From Mosigvirus mar005p1: a DNA stretch of 64,000 nt. Both the position numbers and the translations under genes were made by a program. This document shows positions 2,713 through 31,168 of this stretch, one piece after another (the stretch's first letter is position 1; each line of letters begins with the position of its first letter). The DNA is taken from the sequence record OZ035759.1; one strand, written 5' to 3'. The notes beneath the pieces were generated by a model. It made no database searches. It was not told where the DNA came from and was given only the letters and a program-made list of their open reading frames with translations.

Positions 2713-2787
2713 CTCTTTTTTCATAAAATGCTTTAATTTTTTATGTGTTATAATGGTTCTGAGTTCCATCCGGTTATTCCAATTCAG

Positions 2788-3396
2788 TCAGTAACTGACA
2801 ATAGACAGATTCCAGATTGTATAACGTCCATCCTGAATAATAGAATCTACACGCAGTGTAGTCCCTATAGGGAGCATAAATTCACATTCGTCAGATATAA
2901 GTCTAGCATTAGACCGTCTTGTCGCTTCAGGGAAAGCTCCATTGAACTCACAAGATGGCGCAGCCAGAATCATGTTAAGCATATGTTCACGGAAGTTGAA
3001 AGCAAATGGTGCATCTTTAATGCAGAACATATTAAATGTTCCGTAAAAATTATACGAAGCAAAGTTACGTGCTACACCGAACACTGGACTAAAGCTCATT
3101 ACTCTGTCAAATTTAATAATACTACCAACGCCTTTATCGTCGAGTGTGGCCATAGTTTTCTTAGAGATTCCACGATACATTGTCTCAGGAACTGAAGAAG
3201 ACCAATTTCTACGAACAATTGCACTTAAATCTTGTTGGATGCTATCAGGCTTGTTTTCCATACACTGCCACAGTACACTTTGTTCAATGTCGCTGAATTG
3301 CTCATCGATTTTGTACTGAAGCATATCTTGATAATCTGGACATTGGGCACGACGAACCATTTCTTCAATTTCACACTCGTTATACGGCATAAACAT
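2788..3396 (-). CDS. modA: ADP-ribosyltransferase ModA-like
   Basis: 202 aa; R-S-ExE ART signature elements (YRG, ECEF); position after srd slot as in T4. Confidence 0.65.
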   Translation of the reverse strand: MFMPYNECEIEEMVRRAQCPDYQDMLQYKIDEQFSDIEQSVLWQCMENKPDSIQQDLSAIVRRNWSSSVPETMYRGISKKTMATLDDKGVGSIIKFDRVMSFSPVFGVARNFASYNFYGTFNMFCIKDAPFAFNFREHMLNMILAAPSCEFNGAFPEATRRSNARLISDECEFMLPIGTTLRVDSIIQDGRYTIWNLSIVSY

Positions 3397-5076: not shown

Positions 5077-5309
5077 TCGCAGCTCCCTGAGTCCGAACTA
5101 CAATCGGAATAACTTGAACCAGAATCTCCAGACCAGGATGATACGTAAGAATGATTATAACTTGAAGAGTTTGAAGCAGACTTAGGACGAATAACTTCTT
5201 CCATCATGCCGTCACCAATGTATTCCCAACTTTTTTCGTGTGTATCAGGAATAGGCATCATACCTTCGCCCGGTTTAGCAGCAAACAACTTCTTCAGCAT
5301 CGTAAGCAT
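5073..5309 (-). CDS. hypothetical protein with Ser-rich low-complexity C-terminus
   Basis: Track ORF 5073..5384 trimmed to internal ATG with AGGA SD; start uncertain. Confidence 0.4.
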   Translation of the reverse strand: MLTMLKKLFAAKPGEGMMPIPDTHEKSWEYIGDGMMEEVIRPKSASNSSSYNHSYVSSWSGDSGSSYSDCSSDSGSCE

Positions 5310-6496: not shown

Positions 6497-6694
6497 ATGT
6501 TTAAACTTCCATCGTTAATCAACGCTATTAAAGGCAATAAAAAGAAAACTGCTATCGCTGCAATAGTTGTAGGTGGCATTATTTCATGGAACTTCGGGAT
6601 TGCACCATTGTTAGTTGCCCATGGTATTATAGTTCCTTCTGTTCCATTGGATACTGTAGTTGATTTGGCCTTTGCTATTGTAGGACTGGTTTAA
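6497..6694 (+). CDS. small hydrophobic membrane protein, plus strand
   Basis: 65-aa ORF preceded by canonical RBS TAAGGAGATATT-ATG; lies in the 56-61 gap. Confidence 0.5.
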   Translation: MFKLPSLINAIKGNKKKTAIAAIVVGGIISWNFGIAPLLVAHGIIVPSVPLDTVVDLAFAIVGLV

Positions 6695-24805: not shown

Positions 24806-25768
24806 TTATTTCCAAGTCAGTTCGCAGGTCAGTTGAAGAAGCATATACATAACATGTAATTCAATATTACTTGCTAGTCCATGAAACTTATTATTTTCGC
24901 CTGCAATTTCGTAAAGCGAAATAATACTTTTACCAGGTGCAACTTTGTCATAACACTCAGAAACTAATTTATCGATGAACCATGAATAATCAGCGGCGTA
25001 TTTTGGAGCTAATGCACGAAGCTGTTTGATATCTTTATTTTTCATTGCTTCTATGACATCATCTACCGTGCCACGATCATTGGTTACAATCGACAAAATA
25101 CCTGCATCAAGAACACCTTTAGACGAGTACTGGTCTAATTGACCAATTGTACGACGAAAGTCCGGGAAGTTCTTTTTAACAAGAGCTGCAACAACTTTCA
25201 TATCAGCGATTTCAATATTTTCGTTCTTACAGATTTCAACCATACGATGAATCATTTTCTTCATCATTGAGATTTTATCTTCTTCGGTTGGACGTCCGAA
25301 TTCGATAACTCGACAACGACTACGCAATGGTTCAATAATTCCATCGATGTTGTTGGCAGTAATAATAATAGAACAGTTACTAGAGAATTCTTCCATGAAT
25401 GTACGAAGGTGTCGTTGTGATTCAGCAAGGCCACTACGGTCAAATTCATCGATAACGATAACTTTCGGCCTGCCTTCCATTGAGACTGAACGAGCAAATG
25501 CAGTTAACGGGCCGCGTACAAAATCAATCTTACAATCAGAACCGTTGACAAACATCATTTCGGCATTGATATCATTACATAATGCTTTTGCTACGGTTGT
25601 TTTACCGGTACCAGGAGATGGAGAGTGTAAAATAATATGAGGAAGTTTTCCTTTAGATACTAAAGACTTGAATGTTTCATGGTCATACGCAGGCAGAATA
25701 CATTCGTCAATGGAAGAAGGACGATATTTCTGTTCTAGAATGTGTTCTTTGGAATTGATAGTAATCAT
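24806..25768 (-). CDS. 44: Clamp-loader ATPase gp44 (AAA+)
   Basis: 320 aa; Walker [11 protein letters not shown], Walker B VIVIDEFD. Confidence 0.9.
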
Positions 25769-25843: not shown

Positions 25844-26530
25844 TTAGAAGTCGTGAGTAGAATCGGCTTCCATCGCAATAACATAACTTACTTGAGAGCT
25901 TTCAAACTTGGCTGCAACTTTATCACCAGCTCCCCACAACATTACTTTATAGTTACCTGGCTGGATTTTCATATTAGCCATATTGATTACGAAGTTAAAG
26001 TTGTTAGAACCATCATAATCGGTAAGAGTCAAAGAATACTTAGGACGAGTTAGTCCAGAATCTTCAACTTTATTATAGCCATTGATAACAATTTTACCAT
26101 CTTTATTTGTAATAGCAATTGTATCAATCTGAAGACCACGTGAAACTCGAAGCAATTGTTGAAGGTCTTCGGCTTTAATTTCAGTAATCACAGAAGCCAC
26201 TGGAAATTGAATTGGCTTATTAGGAAAAACAATGGTGCTCTTGTCAGCGGCAGGCCAATAAACTGTGGAACGTGTATCTGCAATTTTAATATTGCCATCA
26301 GTGTGCATTGAAATTTCAGCATCATCAGACACTAGACTCAAAATGCTTAAGAAGCTATTCAAATCATAAAGTGCTACGTCAAAATCAATTTCATCAGAGA
26401 TATTTGCTTCCGCATAAGTGGTGCCATTAACTGCACGAGTCATAATAAATTTACCTTGACTCAGCAGAATGCCGGAGTTAATAGAGGCAAAGTTTTTCAG
26501 AATAGCGATAGTATCTTTAGACAGTTTCAT
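25844..26530 (-). CDS. 45: Sliding clamp gp45
   Basis: Track ORF trimmed to MKLSKDT...; 228 aa colinear with T4 gp45. Confidence 0.88.
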   Translation of the reverse strand: MKLSKDTIAILKNFASINSGILLSQGKFIMTRAVNGTTYAEANISDEIDFDVALYDLNSFLSILSLVSDDAEISMHTDGNIKIADTRSTVYWPAADKSTIVFPNKPIQFPVASVITEIKAEDLQQLLRVSRGLQIDTIAITNKDGKIVINGYNKVEDSGLTRPKYSLTLTDYDGSNNFNFVINMANMKIQPGNYKVMLWGAGDKVAAKFESSQVSYVIAMEADSTHDF

Positions 26531-26572
26531 TTTATTTCCTTTCAAGACAATTCAAAGTTTATAACAAATTTA

Positions 26573-26989
26573 TTATGCAGCAACCATCTGCTTTTTAATA
26601 GCTTCAGGCAGTGATTCAATATATTCTGGAATTTTAGAAGCAACAATTTCGCCAGCTGCAATTAGTTGTTCGTCGGCATCAACACAGTAGAAATCTTCCA
26701 GACGCTCAGAACCGTCTTTATCAAGAACGATTTTTCCGCCAGCTTCAATAGAATCTTTATAGTGCTTACGCATCAGATGAATCCACATATCAGATACATC
26801 GTTATCAATAAAACCATAAATCATAAAACGAGTTTCTTGTGGCAAAGATTGGAGTTTTTTAGCACTTGCGTCATCACAATGCAGGACCCATGCTTTACGA
26901 ACACGATTATGGTTATGTGGGTTAGAGTCAGTACGGATAGAAGTAACTTTCAGATCAGCAGCAGTGAAACCTTTAGCAGTAGTAAACAT
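26573..26989 (-). CDS. rpbA: RpbA-like RNA polymerase-binding protein
   Basis: 138-aa ORF directly downstream of 45, as in T4. Confidence 0.5.
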   Translation of the reverse strand: MFTTAKGFTAADLKVTSIRTDSNPHNHNRVRKAWVLHCDDASAKKLQSLPQETRFMIYGFIDNDVSDMWIHLMRKHYKDSIEAGGKIVLDKDGSERLEDFYCVDADEQLIAAGEIVASKIPEYIESLPEAIKKQMVAA

Positions 26990-27001: not shown

Positions 27002-27193
27002 TTATTCGTAGAAGTCGGTAACTGTCCATGCGGAATTGCGATTAGACATTATTTTATTATACTCATCTTTAAAAGCAGATTTGAGCATTTGTTCAGTAAC
27101 AATATGTTCTTCACCTGAAAACGTATTGGTCAAAACATATTTTTTAATTTCAGGGACAACAAGAAGATGTTGTCCGGTTGAATACTCCGCCAT
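27002..27193 (-). CDS. hypothetical protein (45.2 position)
   Basis: 63-aa ORF. Confidence 0.45.
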   Translation of the reverse strand: MAEYSTGQHLLVVPEIKKYVLTNTFSGEEHIVTEQMLKSAFKDEYNKIMSNRNSAWTVTDFYE

Positions 27194-27239
27194 TATAAAT
27201 CTCCATGATTAAAGCAATATAAATAGGTTTATCAATTTA

Positions 27240-27990
27240 TCTGTTGCTGTATCAAATAAGGATTTAGTAAATGAATTATAACTCAATATACGAAAAGCTT
27301 ATCACCAATGCTAAATCAAGAAGTTTAGATGGTTACACAGAACGTCATCACATTATACCACAATGTTTAGGTGGAAGTGATGATGCTTCAAACTTAGTAG
27401 ACTTAACACCAGAAGAACATTATTTGGCACATCAACTGTTGGTAAAAATCTATCCAGATAATGCCTCTTTAATATACGCTGCTCGTATGATGACCATATC
27501 ATCTCCTAAAGCAGATAGAAGCAAAAACAAATTATTTGGATGGCTTCGTCGTAAGAATCAAGAAGTTCAAAAGAACAAAGAATTCACGGCTGAAACCCGT
27601 AAGAAAATGTCCGAGTCTGCAAAAAATAAACCAAAGATTACCTGTCCACATTGTGGTTTAACTGGAACTGAAGGAAACATGCGTCGTTGGCATTTTGATA
27701 ATTGTAAACAAGGTCCAACGCCTAAAATAGTAAAATTATCTGATGATGAAAAACAGAGGATAAGTTCTAAACTTAAAACAATAGAGTGGAAACTCCACAC
27801 ATGTGTACACTGTGGTCTAGAAGGAAAAGCTTGCAATATAGTTCCTCATGAGAAAAACTGCAAACTTAATCCTAATAGAATAAAACCTAATGTAACAATA
27901 GTGGAATGTCCATACTGCTCTAAAAGTGGTTCTATATCAAATATGAAAAGATGGCATTTCGATAATTGTAAATATAAGCCTCATTAAGAG
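27240..27990 (+). mobile_element. free-standing homing-endonuclease gene insertion between 45.2 and 46
   Basis: Only sizeable plus-strand gene in a minus-strand operon; HNH family typical of T-even mob/seg elements. Confidence 0.5.
27271..27987 (+). CDS. HNH homing endonuclease with three C-terminal Cys/His zinc-finger-like repeats
   Basis: 238 aa on opposite strand; HNH motif ERHHIIPQCLGGSDDASNLVDLTPEEH; repeats CPHCG...GNMRRWHFDNCK (x3); converges on gene 46. Confidence 0.8.
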   Translation: MNYNSIYEKLITNAKSRSLDGYTERHHIIPQCLGGSDDASNLVDLTPEEHYLAHQLLVKIYPDNASLIYAARMMTISSPKADRSKNKLFGWLRRKNQEVQKNKEFTAETRKKMSESAKNKPKITCPHCGLTGTEGNMRRWHFDNCKQGPTPKIVKLSDDEKQRISSKLKTIEWKLHTCVHCGLEGKACNIVPHEKNCKLNPNRIKPNVTIVECPYCSKSGSISNMKRWHFDNCKYKPH

Positions 27991-29672
27991 GCTTTCATCA
28001 CAGTAAATCGTCCAACTTTGCTCATTTGAAGATGTTGTCCATAAGCTTGTGGGTCATGGTCTCTGTGACTAATTATAAACACGTTTGCATCGGTTAGAGA
28101 GTTAAGAATTGTTGAAATAGCTTTAATACCTTCAGAATCAGTCGCGGAATCCATGACTTCGTCCATAATTAATGTATTGATTCTAACACCAGAGACCTTT
28201 TCAGCAATATCTCGCCATGTAAACAACAACGCGATATCGATACGTGCCTTTTCACCTTGACTAAATGAAGCATAACTAAAATCTTCACGACCACGTGATT
28301 TTATAGATTCATTGAATTCTTCATCAATAGAAAACACGTAATCAGCTTCCATGATTTTAAGATAATGGTTAATCTGCTTGTTGAACAGAGGCACGTATTT
28401 TTTAATGATAGCACCTTTAATACCAGAATCTTTTAACATATCTGTGATAATACCACGATGATATTTTTCAAGAACGATGTCTGATTTTGTTTTAATGATT
28501 TTATCAAGTTCTTTTTGAAGCAAAGCTATCTCATCGGCATGGTCGATAAACTCCGCCGAGGCTTGTTCTATTGCAGCTTTAACTTTCTTAGCTTTATCAA
28601 TAGTGGCAATCATTGCTTGTTTCTTGGTACGAATATCAGATGCAAGGTCCTGTTTAGTCTTAACATTAGCTCTATATTCGTCCACTAGGACACTCAGATT
28701 ATCTCTGTGACATGTAAGTTGCTCGAATGAGTGATTACATTCATGAAGCTTATCGGTAATCTTAGAGACAATAGGATCACCCTGGTGCAACTGTGATGCA
28801 CAAGTAGGACATGTGCCACCGTCATGATACATCTTAATAACTTTGTTATATGAGTCGATTTTAGATTTAATCAAGAATGCTTCTTGTCCGATCTTGTTGA
28901 ATGCCTCAGTAGGGTCTTCATCAAGAACGATATTAAGTAGTCGCTCATTAGCTTCTTCGATTTCTGCTTTTAATGAACGAGCTTCTTTGGCTAGGTCGTC
29001 ATACATATTCTGTAGACGCGCTACATTATCACCAGATAATTTCTTTTGACGTTCGATATTCTCGTTATAAATCTTAATTTGTTGGATAACACCATCTTTC
29101 TTGGCATCGAGAACTTGCCCTTGGGAATTAAGTTCTCGAACTTGAGACTTATTGATTTTATCCATTTCGGCGAGTGTGCCGACTTCTAAAAGGTCTTCGA
29201 CAAGTTTTCTACGAGCAGGGGTGCTAAGAGCCATGAAAGGGGTATACCCTGCCGTCCCAAGCACAACGATTTGTTTAAAAGACGCGTATGACATTCCGAT
29301 GCTACGTTCAAATTCTTCTTGGAAGTCACGACTGCTGGCAGATTCATCGAGACGAACACCGTCAACGGAGATTTCGAAAATATTGGGCTTTTGGCCACGT
29401 CTAATGAAGTATTTTTTATCATCGAATTCCATCCAAAGCTCAACTAAGAGCTCTTTCTTGTTCGTGCTATTAATGATTTGTCCTTTCTTAACATCACGAA
29501 ATGGTTTACCGAAAAGTCCGAAAGTAATGGCTTCTAACATCGTAGATTTACCACCGCCATTTTTACCAGTGATTAATGTCTTTTGGACTTTATCTAATTG
29601 GATATCAATAGGATTCCCACCTACCGACATGATGTTTTGATAACGAACACGATTTAATTTAAATGATTTCAT
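27984..29672 (-). CDS. 46: Recombination nuclease subunit gp46 (SbcC/Rad50-like ATPase)
   Basis: 562 aa; Walker A GKNGGGKST, coiled-coil middle, signature/Walker B region; T4 gp46 ~560 aa. Confidence 0.9.
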   Translation of the reverse strand: MKSFKLNRVRYQNIMSVGGNPIDIQLDKVQKTLITGKNGGGKSTMLEAITFGLFGKPFRDVKKGQIINSTNKKELLVELWMEFDDKKYFIRRGQKPNIFEISVDGVRLDESASSRDFQEEFERSIGMSYASFKQIVVLGTAGYTPFMALSTPARRKLVEDLLEVGTLAEMDKINKSQVRELNSQGQVLDAKKDGVIQQIKIYNENIERQKKLSGDNVARLQNMYDDLAKEARSLKAEIEEANERLLNIVLDEDPTEAFNKIGQEAFLIKSKIDSYNKVIKMYHDGGTCPTCASQLHQGDPIVSKITDKLHECNHSFEQLTCHRDNLSVLVDEYRANVKTKQDLASDIRTKKQAMIATIDKAKKVKAAIEQASAEFIDHADEIALLQKELDKIIKTKSDIVLEKYHRGIITDMLKDSGIKGAIIKKYVPLFNKQINHYLKIMEADYVFSIDEEFNESIKSRGREDFSYASFSQGEKARIDIALLFTWRDIAEKVSGVRINTLIMDEVMDSATDSEGIKAISTILNSLTDANVFIISHRDHDPQAYGQHLQMSKVGRFTVMKAS

Positions 29673-29923: not shown

Positions 29924-30152
29924 TACACGCTTCAGCCATTTTAAGAATAGAGCCAGGAGTATCGTTGTCCATTATATTAAAGCTAAATTCAATAGCCCAG
30001 TCGGTGCAGACATGAACTGCTTTAACTTCATTGCCTTCAACGCGTAATGGCTCAATCCAATACTTGATAGTGTTCTCGAATCCATCATCATCTTTAACAT
30101 CTATTTCAACTTCAAGCCCGAGCCCAGCATTGTTAAATTCATCTAAAGTCAT
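29895..30152 (-). CDS. hypothetical acidic protein
   Basis: 85-aa ORF. Confidence 0.5.
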   Translation of the reverse strand: MTLDEFNNAGLGLEVEIDVKDDDGFENTIKYWIEPLRVEGNEVKAVHVCTDWAIEFSFNIMDNDTPGSILKMAEACIEDAYNDED

Positions 30153-31168
30153 TGTGTTGCCTCAATATAAAGTTCGTTGGAATATTTGACCAGCGCTTCT
30201 CTGTCTTCGTCTGAGATATCTGGAATCGCGTCAATATATTCTTTAATGATATCTTGAAGTGATTTAATCTCGATTTCCTGGTCGTCATCAGATTCAACAC
30301 TGTTATCAACTTTAGAAACCATACGAAGAGAGTGAACTACTTTTTCAAGTTCAGATTCAAACTTAGTCAACTCTGAATCAATTTCTGATACTATAACACG
30401 TAAGGCTAGATTAGTATAATCAGAATAATTGATTTTGCCTTTAAACGGATAAGTGATTCGTCGATGCCATGTTGTTTCATTAGGAATAAATTCCATACGT
30501 TCAACATCAGTGTCAAATACCCAGAATCCGCGCGGGTCGTTCTCATCGCCTGCAGTAAGGGTCCATGGTGTCCCAATATATTTGACGTTAGCAGCTTCAG
30601 AGATTGTGTGGAAGTGGCCGGACCAGACTTGTTTATAGGTCTTTAAGAAATCAGGTTCAAGCCCATGAGACTTCATTCCTTTATAGAAATAAAAACCATT
30701 CAGTTCCCAGTGCCCAACACAATACGCAGCAGAAGAAGTCTTGATGTGCTCTAAGATTTCACCTGTATTTTCTTCACACATCCATGGAACGATATCAATC
30801 AGACATCCGTCAAAATCTACAGTAGTTGGATGCTCGTAAATAGTAAAGTTTTCAAATTGAGTTAACAATTCAGAAACAGTGTTAGGTGTTATGGTATTCT
30901 TAAACGCCATGTCATGATTTCCTATCGTGACATGAACGTGAATGCCTGCTTTAGAAATCATATCAACGATTTCACGATTGAATTCCATTGTACGATGTGT
31001 TATTGCTTTACGGACGTCAAACCAATCACCGTACTGAATCCAAGTTTTAATCCCGTGTTTCTTAGAGTATTCAATTGCTTGACGAATACCATCACGTTGA
31101 ATATCTTGAACCCATGGGTCGTCTTGTTTGACTCCGATATGGAAGTCGCCTAAGTGCAAAATTTTCAT
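30149..31168 (-). CDS. 47: Recombination nuclease subunit gp47 (SbcD/Mre11-like)
   Basis: 339 aa; phosphoesterase motifs LHLGDFH, GNHD; same length as T4 gp47. Confidence 0.9.
   Translation of the reverse strand: MKILHLGDFHIGVKQDDPWVQDIQRDGIRQAIEYSKKHGIKTWIQYGDWFDVRKAITHRTMEFNREIVDMISKAGIHVHVTIGNHDMAFKNTITPNTVSELLTQFENFTIYEHPTTVDFDGCLIDIVPWMCEENTGEILEHIKTSSAAYCVGHWELNGFYFYKGMKSHGLEPDFLKTYKQVWSGHFHTISEAANVKYIGTPWTLTAGDENDPRGFWVFDTDVERMEFIPNETTWHRRITYPFKGKINYSDYTNLALRVIVSEIDSELTKFESELEKVVHSLRMVSKVDNSVESDDDQEIEIKSLQDIIKEYIDAIPDISDEDREALVKYSNELYIEATQ

Follow-up and report, generated by a model that had tools for sequence, protein, structure and literature searches.

A probable MobE-like homing endonuclease gene in an 806-bp cassette at the 46/45.2 junction of an RB69-like phage

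Free-standing endonuclease genes of phage T4 must fit the transcription programme of their host and often embed host promoters (PMC2988022). One of these genes, mobE, is promoterless; it shares the transcript of nrdA, within limits set by an internal terminator, and both a site-specific nick and the preferential inheritance of its own gene have been demonstrated for MobE (PMC2790892). For I-TevIII, one zinc was found per CX2CX12-13HX3C finger and both fingers were needed for DNA binding, as determined by a PAR (4-(2-pyridylazo)resorcinol) assay and Cys-to-Ala mutants; a dimerisation determinant adjoins the fingers, and the I-TevIII of T4 itself is an inactive relic (PMC1865063). RB69 was entered as lacking homing endonuclease genes in a 2010 survey (PMC2993671, Table 5). 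The present analysis concerns a plus-strand gene of Mosigvirus mar005p1, an RB69-like T-even phage, in a 64,000-nucleotide stretch of the sequence record OZ035759.1 (the window). It is probably a free-standing T4 Mob (MobE-like HNH) homing endonuclease gene that resides in an 806-bp cassette, an invader of the junction of genes 46 and 45.2.

The predicted protein has the full-length homology expected of a Mob family member: it is collinear with T4 MobE, starting at the MNY...IY N-terminus, running on over the HNH core and ending with the terminal CCHC finger (34% identity, E 3e-35, 243 columns). Six places in the T4 genome matched the protein, and MobE was the best of them. The protein was also assigned by PHROGs to phrog_655, 'homing endonuclease' (E 3e-66). 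Like mobE, the gene is free-standing and sporadic, and its expected target is a neighbouring gene in insert-free form. Unlike mobE, which lies between nrdA and nrdB, it occupies another locus with another target gene, is antisense to its neighbours and has a late-promoter consensus of its own. The two proteins also differ in that MobE has NUMOD3-type repeats where the window protein has its first and second zinc fingers (ZnF1 and ZnF2), and hence carries one finger rather than three.

The C-terminal block of I-TevIII (a NUMOD3-like helix, a finger, the CKLNPNRI linker and a second finger) is 44% identical to residues 156-236 over 90 residues (E 5e-15); in this comparison, which used the U5 copy, the C-terminal block alone was aligned and nothing was returned for query residues 1-118. 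I-TevIII is encoded by the nrdB group I intron of phage RB3 and has two fingers with another, longer linker, whereas the window protein is free-standing and has three fingers. Closer still are the orthologs at the same locus, of 237-239 residues, in a20 (a20_170), F2 and NRG-P0074 of Mosigvirus, in RB32 (RB32ORF054w), RB33 and RB51 of Tequatrovirus and in Dhakavirus IME281 (KNT84_gp222), which share the orientation and the three-finger architecture, with late-promoter consensus, leader and junction logic as in the window. Identity to the window protein is 81% within Mosigvirus, 66% in Dhakavirus, 59% in Tequatrovirus and 44-48% in Klebsiella and Cronobacter phages. A database search with the protein returned 3085 relatives, many of them with NUMOD3 modules. 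Existing annotations call the orthologs 'homing endonuclease', 'similar to mobB' or 'Mob-like HNH', and the window protein is, to judge from its sequence, an uncharacterised further member of the Mob/I-TevIII kind.

The 46/45.2 junction with and without the cassette

The cassette takes the place of 67 bp of the RB69-type empty site (positions 2190-2256 of the RB69 locus L001), a segment that reads CATGTTGTTCTCCATTTAATTTGATGTGGTCATTATAACCACATCGTGTTAAAGCGTTTATGAAACAGTCAT. Eight insert-bearing Mosigvirus genomes (the window, a20, NRG-P0074, F2, ST0, ESCO47, 348Ecol098PP and FL31) were aligned with six insert-free genomes (RB69, HX01, SQ17, WFL6982, ZQ3 and SA79RD). Every fixed difference between the two sets fell within 27189-27994, the boundaries being identical in all eight, and no fixed difference was present outside the cassette in about 700 bp of left-hand and 1 kb of right-hand flank, where polymorphisms are common to insert-bearing and insert-free genomes. 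Over the 2.5 kb around the endonuclease gene the window is 97-98% identical to a20, NRG-P0074, F2 and others, with flanks 98-99% identical to RB69. The cassette also reaches into both neighbouring genes, such that gp46 ends in ...FTVMKAS* in the window versus ...FTVMTVS* in RB69, and gp45.2 begins M-A-E... versus M-E... in RB69.

The insert was identified in 13 of about 156 Mosigvirus-like records (at least 90% identity), and RB69 and most Mosigvirus are without it. A homologous cassette is present in 60 of about 503 Tequatrovirus-like records (~12%), RB32 having it and T4 being without. At the junction of RB32, compared with T4, 786 bp stand in place of 72 bp, the start of 45.2 is changed from ME to MAE and the C-terminus of gp46 is rewritten. 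Homologs at the same junction were also found in Dhakavirus IME281, on a metagenomic T4-like contig and in Klebsiella and Cronobacter phages. The gene is therefore free-standing, intergenic, present in some relatives and absent from others, as are genes of the Mob family. A preliminary description of the locus had proposed a free-standing mobile homing endonuclease inserted between 45.2 and 46, to be checked by comparing the junction with that of insert-free relatives, and had named conservation of the gene at this site in all relatives as the finding that would speak against it. The outcome of the junction comparison is what a free-standing homing endonuclease gene should produce, the fractions of records given above are far from such conservation, and the proposal is supported by the empty sites, the identical boundaries and the MobE homology. 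A sporadic, site-specific distribution is likewise as expected of this class of genes.

A 13-nucleotide exact direct repeat, GAAGATGTTGTCC (27163-27175 and 28028-28040), was weighed as a possible recombination site or target duplication, and both ideas were discarded. Both copies are located outside the cassette, are present in insert-free genomes and are polymorphic among phages, encoding GQHL in gp45.2 and gp46, so that the repeat flanking the cassette is probably a coincidence. Two database records at this locus deserve a remark. The ST0 genome (MF044457.1 / NC_041990.1; L011 772-1488) contains an intact endonuclease open reading frame (ORF) encoding 238 aa that is missing from both annotations. 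The F2 record (MN864145.1) is classed as Tequatrovirus, yet its region is 98% identical to the RB69-like window with a Mosigvirus-type cassette, and its label may be a taxonomic mislabel.

Domain organisation of the endonuclease

Residues 24-54 (ERHHIIPQCLGGSDDASNLVDLTPEEHYLAH) are predicted to form the HNH catalytic core, and they agree with the canonical N-terminal HNH motif noted previously, ERHHIIPQCLGG...NLVDLTPEEH, which spans residues 24-50. In an alignment of 104 homologs, H26, H27, N41, H50 and H54 are invariant, and they include the residues characteristic of the HNH superfamily: a general-base His closing strand 1, an Asn within strand 2 and, in the helix that follows, a His that binds metal. 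They align with the HNH motif of McrA ('YLEVHHVIPLSSGGADTTDNCVALCPNCH'), which is the best sequence match among solved structures (E 0.008). The AlphaFold2 model, built from the 104-sequence alignment with a mean predicted local distance difference test (pLDDT) score of 93.7, has a beta-beta-alpha arrangement in the HNH core and in each finger. Fold searches with the whole model were uninformative, returning weak matches to zinc-finger arrays and HNH matches that were local only. The protein is assigned to the HNH superfamily by its motif, its predicted fold and its homology to MobE. The ESCO47 ortholog (L012 780-1496) has an H27Y substitution (ERHYIIP) in the HH dyad and is otherwise intact; this allele may be catalytically dead and at an early stage of decay.

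The alignments and the predicted model show a layout of HNH domain, NUMOD3-like helix, ZnF1, NUMOD3-like helix, ZnF2 and a third finger (ZnF3). All 12 finger ligands are invariant in the 20 closest homologs, with identity down to 45%, and the ZnF3 ligands (C213, C216, H229 and C233) are invariant across the 104 homologs, ZnF3 being the one finger that is kept throughout the whole MobE family. By BLASTP, ZnF1 is 55% identical to ZnF3 (E 7e-14) and also matches ZnF2 (E 3e-6); no significant BLASTP match was obtained between ZnF2 and ZnF3, which have little in common except the ligands. The spacing follows the CX2CX12-13HX3C pattern of the I-TevIII fingers, with X12 in ZnF1 and ZnF3 and X11, one residue short, in ZnF2. 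Three tandem repeats of CxxCG(L/S)...GN(M/I)(R/K)RWHFDNCK had been described earlier; three Cys/His modules are indeed present, and the consensus fully fits ZnF1. It does not hold for ZnF2, which reads CVHCGLEGKACNIVPHEKNCK and is without RWHFDNCK, and ZnF3 fits it apart from having S, not G, after CxxC. The suggestion that these repeats are DNA-binding zinc fingers agrees with the properties of the homologous I-TevIII fingers, in which zinc is bound and on which DNA binding depends.

Signals carried by the cassette and the surrounding genes

The coordinates of the cassette, its signals, the protein modules and the neighbouring genes are collected in Table 1. The T4-type late promoter consensus TATAAATA occurs in four copies in the window, and the single plus-strand copy is the one upstream of the endonuclease gene; it is kept upstream of the homologs in a20, RB32 and IME281. 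The leader around the Shine-Dalgarno sequence, GCTGTATCAAA(T)AAGGAT, is conserved in four genera. A ribosome-binding-site hairpin like that of mobE was considered and rejected, as the leader fold is no better than that of shuffled sequences (z 0.05). A 17-nucleotide inverted repeat (82% complementary) pairs 27243-27259, in the leader just upstream of the Shine-Dalgarno sequence, with 27420-27436, in coding sequence 160 nucleotides downstream, and this pairing could be a long-range structure or chance.

On the minus strand, two middle-promoter-like motifs are located inside the cassette, both directed towards 45.2/rpbA/45. The first is back to back with the late promoter, and its -10 element overlaps the start codon of 45.2. 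The second is kept in a20, IME281 and the metagenomic contig (L005), and is not found in RB32. The pattern GCTT-N13-15-TATAAT occurs 12 times in the window versus 1.1 expected (11-fold), with 10 of the 12 on the minus strand and the above two inside the cassette. The empty site of RB69 and SA79RD has exactly one middle-promoter motif (RB69 L001 2220-2243), which is removed by the cassette and which the SA79RD annotation describes as a middle promoter adjoining a terminator. Across the window, the sites on the minus strand are at 5154, 15068, 16667, 27192, 27275, 38492, 44047, 54032, 55308 and 61259, and those on the plus strand at 2730 and 34353, which provides a rough map of candidate MotA-dependent promoters.

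At the right end of the cassette, the arms of a stem-loop encode K-P-H of the endonuclease and K-A-S of gp46. Its RNA fold has z = -5.5 on both strands, and none of 200 shuffles was equally stable. Equivalent inverted repeats were recognised by eye at the homologous position in IME281, in the metagenomic contig (L005) and in RB32, where the sequence differs. The cassette thus appears to bring its own promoters, a stem-loop and terminal codons for its neighbours.

Table 1. Coordinates of the cassette, its signals, the protein modules and the neighbouring genes in the window
Feature	Coordinates	Strand	Basis and remarks
Whole mobile cassette, 806 bp	27189..27994		blastn against RB69: homology stops at 27188 and resumes at 27995
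Middle-promoter-like motif 1: TTGCTTTA (MotA-box-like), N14, TATAAT	27192..27215	-	also in a20
T4-type late promoter consensus TATAAATA	27218..27225	+	45 nt upstream of ATG
Shine-Dalgarno AAGGA	27258..27262	+	8 nt before ATG; read from sequence
MobE-family HNH homing endonuclease ORF	27271..27987	+	ATG start, 238 aa; phrog_655, MobE homology, AlphaFold2, dN/dS
Middle-promoter-like motif 2	27275..27298	-	antisense inside endonuclease codons 2-10; points at 45.2/rpbA/45
Predicted HNH catalytic core, residues 24-54 (H26, H27, N41, H50, H54)	27340..27432	+	predicted beta-beta-alpha fold
NUMOD3-like helix 1, residues 105-119, FTAETRKKMSESAKN	27583..27627	+	aligns with MobE repeat region; model helix 107-118
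Zinc finger 1, C125/C128/H141/C145, CX2CX12HX3C	27643..27705	+	same ligands in all 20 homologs; strands at 122-124 and 131-133 and helix at 134-144 in the model
Recombinant patch, residues ~157-227 (second helix, ZnF2, linker, most of ZnF3)	27735..27960	+	drop in DNA and protein identity to a20
NUMOD3-like helix 2, residues 156-170, LSDDEKQRISSKLKT	27736..27780	+	model helix 158-170; aligns to I-TevIII 'LSEDHKKRTSAKTLE'
Zinc finger 2, C178/C181/H193/C197, CX2CX11HX3C	27802..27861	+	ligand invariance and model; homologous to first I-TevIII finger
Zinc finger 3, C213/C216/H229/C233, CX2CX12HX3C	27907..27969	+	aligns to single MobE finger and second I-TevIII finger
7-bp stem-loop AAGCCTC-ATTAA-GAGGCTT	27976..27994		both stop codons in loop; right end is cassette boundary
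Gene 44	24806-25768	-	neighbourhood
Gene 45	25844-26545	-	neighbourhood
rpbA	26573-26989	-	neighbourhood
Gene 45.2	27002..27193	-	phrog_1045 (E 1e-31); Pfam Gp45_2; first two codons (M-A) from cassette
Gene 46 (SbcC/Rad50-like)	27984..29672	-	phrog_77 (E 3e-193); last three codons and stop from cassette
Gene 47	30149-31168	-	neighbourhood

In the preferred reading, the gene would be transcribed late from its own TATAAATA promoter, against the surrounding early and middle genes. In a mixed infection with an insert-free relative, the array of fingers and helices would bind that relative's empty 46/45.2 junction, where the HNH domain would introduce a nick, as MobE does, or a cut, as dimeric I-TevIII does. 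We infer that the recognition site involves the replaced 67-bp segment or spans a junction, because there is no other fixed difference between insert-bearing and insert-free genomes. By analogy with the established T-even homing pathway, recombination-dependent repair on the insert-bearing template would then copy the cassette into the recipient. Operon function would be preserved, as the cassette supplies gene 46 with its last three codons and stop and a stem-loop over both stops, and supplies 45.2 with its first two codons and two minus-strand middle-promoter motifs in exchange for the one deleted.

The preliminary description had located the gene at 27240-27990 on the plus strand, a range inside which the ATG-initiated ORF for 238 aa lies, and had it overlap the stop of gene 46; the two stop codons (27985-27987 on the plus strand, 27984-27986 on the minus strand) in fact share the palindrome TTAA (27984-27987). 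Its naming of the neighbours as 45.2 and 46 agrees with the phrog_1045, Pfam Gp45_2 and phrog_77 matches. The further statement that this is the only substantial plus-strand gene in the window is correct for ORFs of at least 100 aa outside minus-strand genes, and probably fails for a 65-aa ORF at 6497-6694 (+). The latter has an end-to-end match to phrog_2024, of unknown function (E 1.4e-27), encodes a hydrophobic-looking product and hardly overlaps any minus-strand ORF; it is probably a second real plus-strand gene. A 150-aa ORF at 2743-3195 (+) is antisense to a 202-aa ORF at 2788-3396 (-), whose product belongs to phrog_832, RNA polymerase ADP-ribosylase (E 2e-38); as family support exists solely for the minus-strand product, the plus-strand ORF is probably spurious. 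No paralogs of the endonuclease gene were identified within the window, and no Rfam family was matched anywhere in it.

Selection, mosaic alleles and alternative explanations

Between the window allele and seven sequenced Mosigvirus alleles, the ratio of non-synonymous to synonymous substitution rates (dN/dS) over codons 1-155 is 0.03-0.06, corresponding to 8-21 synonymous and 2-4 non-synonymous changes. Among the a20-type alleles themselves, dS reaches 0.2 with a dN of about 0.002. On the strength of the former ratio, the endonuclease is by all appearances under strong purifying selection, and is a maintained protein rather than a decaying relic.

The window allele is a recombinant, as far as the comparison with a20 can tell. 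DNA identity to a20 is 93-100% on both sides of the patch listed in Table 1 and 33-67% inside it, and at the protein level there are two differences in residues 1-155, about 35-40% identity in residues 157-227, and identity throughout the last 11 residues. All 13 Mosigvirus copies in the phage collection are of the a20 type, about 35-40% identical to the window in residues ~157-227, and the window-type C-terminal block is absent from 50,697 phage records, where the best match to the C-terminal 89 residues is 52.5%. The nearest relative of the block is P0003, a same-locus protein on the metagenomic T4-like contig, with 71% identity within the block. The exact window protein and three variants of 99-100% identity were found in separate assemblies of E. 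coli and Shigella records under the label 'HNH endonuclease', and in two of the three variants N-terminal polymorphisms of the a20 type accompany the window-type block. The HNH domain of P0004 resembles that of a20 (94%), but its ZnF1 region is only 65% identical; P0004 and P0121/P0122 are further mosaics. The block of the second NUMOD3-like helix, ZnF2 and ZnF3 in the window allele would thus derive from a different allele lineage at the same locus. Because of the mixtures of window-type and a20-type segments and the P0004 mosaic, alleles at the 46/45.2 locus are taken to exchange modules. It is conceivable, if rather doubtful, that the block swap at 27735-27960 represents a natural retargeting, in which the window-type protein would recognise another sequence or a target variant that resists the a20-type enzyme. 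If this is true, the locus would offer a natural series for finger-by-finger specificity change in HNH homing endonucleases.

Several observations weigh against the interpretation as a mobile Mob-type endonuclease gene. Every Pfam hit of the protein stayed below its curated cut-off, those to the HNH models included (PF01844, 15.3 bits versus 21.4; PF14279, 15.9 versus 27.5), with an HNH match that covers 22 residues only. Pfam NUMOD3 (PF07460) had no match in the endonuclease at E up to 1, though it is precomputed for many homologs, and this is why residues 105-119 and 156-170 are called only 'NUMOD3-like', yet they align to the MobE and I-TevIII repeats and are helical in the model. The second middle-promoter motif may be in part a by-product of coding constraint, as it overlaps the codons for MNY...EKL, which are found family-wide, and RB32 is without it. 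No co-conversion tract was detected in the flanks, where mismatches to RB69 are evenly spread and fixed differences are lacking; it follows that the invasion was not recent or that the tract was erased by flank recombination. Very strong purifying selection is unexpected for a purely selfish, decaying element, and frequent homing or a benefit to the host would fit it equally well. Finally, no paper on the 45.2/46 endonuclease locus was found in the literature.

The selection data, together with the lack of co-conversion tracts, would also suit a former homing endonuclease that is no longer mobile in Mosigvirus and has been domesticated or retained, an explanation that we consider unlikely. The benefit to the phage might consist in excluding or cutting the genomes of competitor phages or in the action of a DNA-binding regulator; alternatively, the cassette might be undeletable, if 45.2/rpbA/45 and gene 46 now have no promoters, start codon and stop codon other than those it carries. 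Such retention is in line with the very low dN/dS of the alleles, whose dS reaches 0.2, and with the presence inside the cassette of middle-promoter motifs and of the codons that end or begin its two neighbours; Edgell et al. point out that genes of this kind tend to be retained when they embed host promoters (PMC2988022). However, about 90% of close relatives function with an empty site, so the gene is not required, and mobility would predict just such a sporadic spread with the same boundaries in several genera; conservation also extends to the catalytic residues.

Still less probable is vertical descent of an ancestral T4-like phage gene at this locus, followed by many losses through deletion. 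This would account for the occurrence of the gene at one locus and in one orientation in at least five genera, and for a protein identity that declines roughly as the phages become more distant. Nevertheless, many independent and identical precise deletions would be needed, each regenerating a functional intergenic region with a terminator, a middle promoter, another gp46 C-terminus and another 45.2 start. The flank polymorphisms freely common to insert-bearing and insert-free genomes, and the module-mosaic alleles, which imply exchange between lineages, are also at odds with it. That the frame is intact but nuclease or DNA-binding function has been lost, following the homing cycle of invasion, fixation and decay, can be given hardly any weight: despite the ESCO47 substitution, the precedent of the relic I-TevIII of T4 (PMC1865063) and the chance that the Mosigvirus target escapes recognition by the swapped ZnF2/ZnF3 block, no HNH or zinc ligand is missing from the window allele, dN/dS lies well under 1, and the window-type allele is undisrupted in four slightly different sequences from separate assemblies.

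The interpretation as a Mob-type homing endonuclease gene is mostly confirmatory, in that the RB69 lineage, once cited as being without such genes, is being colonised at 46/45.2 by a MobE-type element that also occupies this site in several other genera. The locus is modestly interesting for the three-finger array, the shuffled two-finger block of the window allele and the self-sufficient antisense design of the cassette. Otherwise ordinary for its class, the window allele would be unusual solely in the exchange of two of its three fingers for another version. Single-base definition of the empty and the filled site in two genera allows cleavage or marker-exclusion work to be designed directly. 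The cassette is a compact example of an invader that may preserve host gene expression while antisense to the operon, and the three-finger CCHC array with its naturally shuffled modules could inform engineered monomeric HNH nickases or nucleases with programmable zinc-finger-like recognition.

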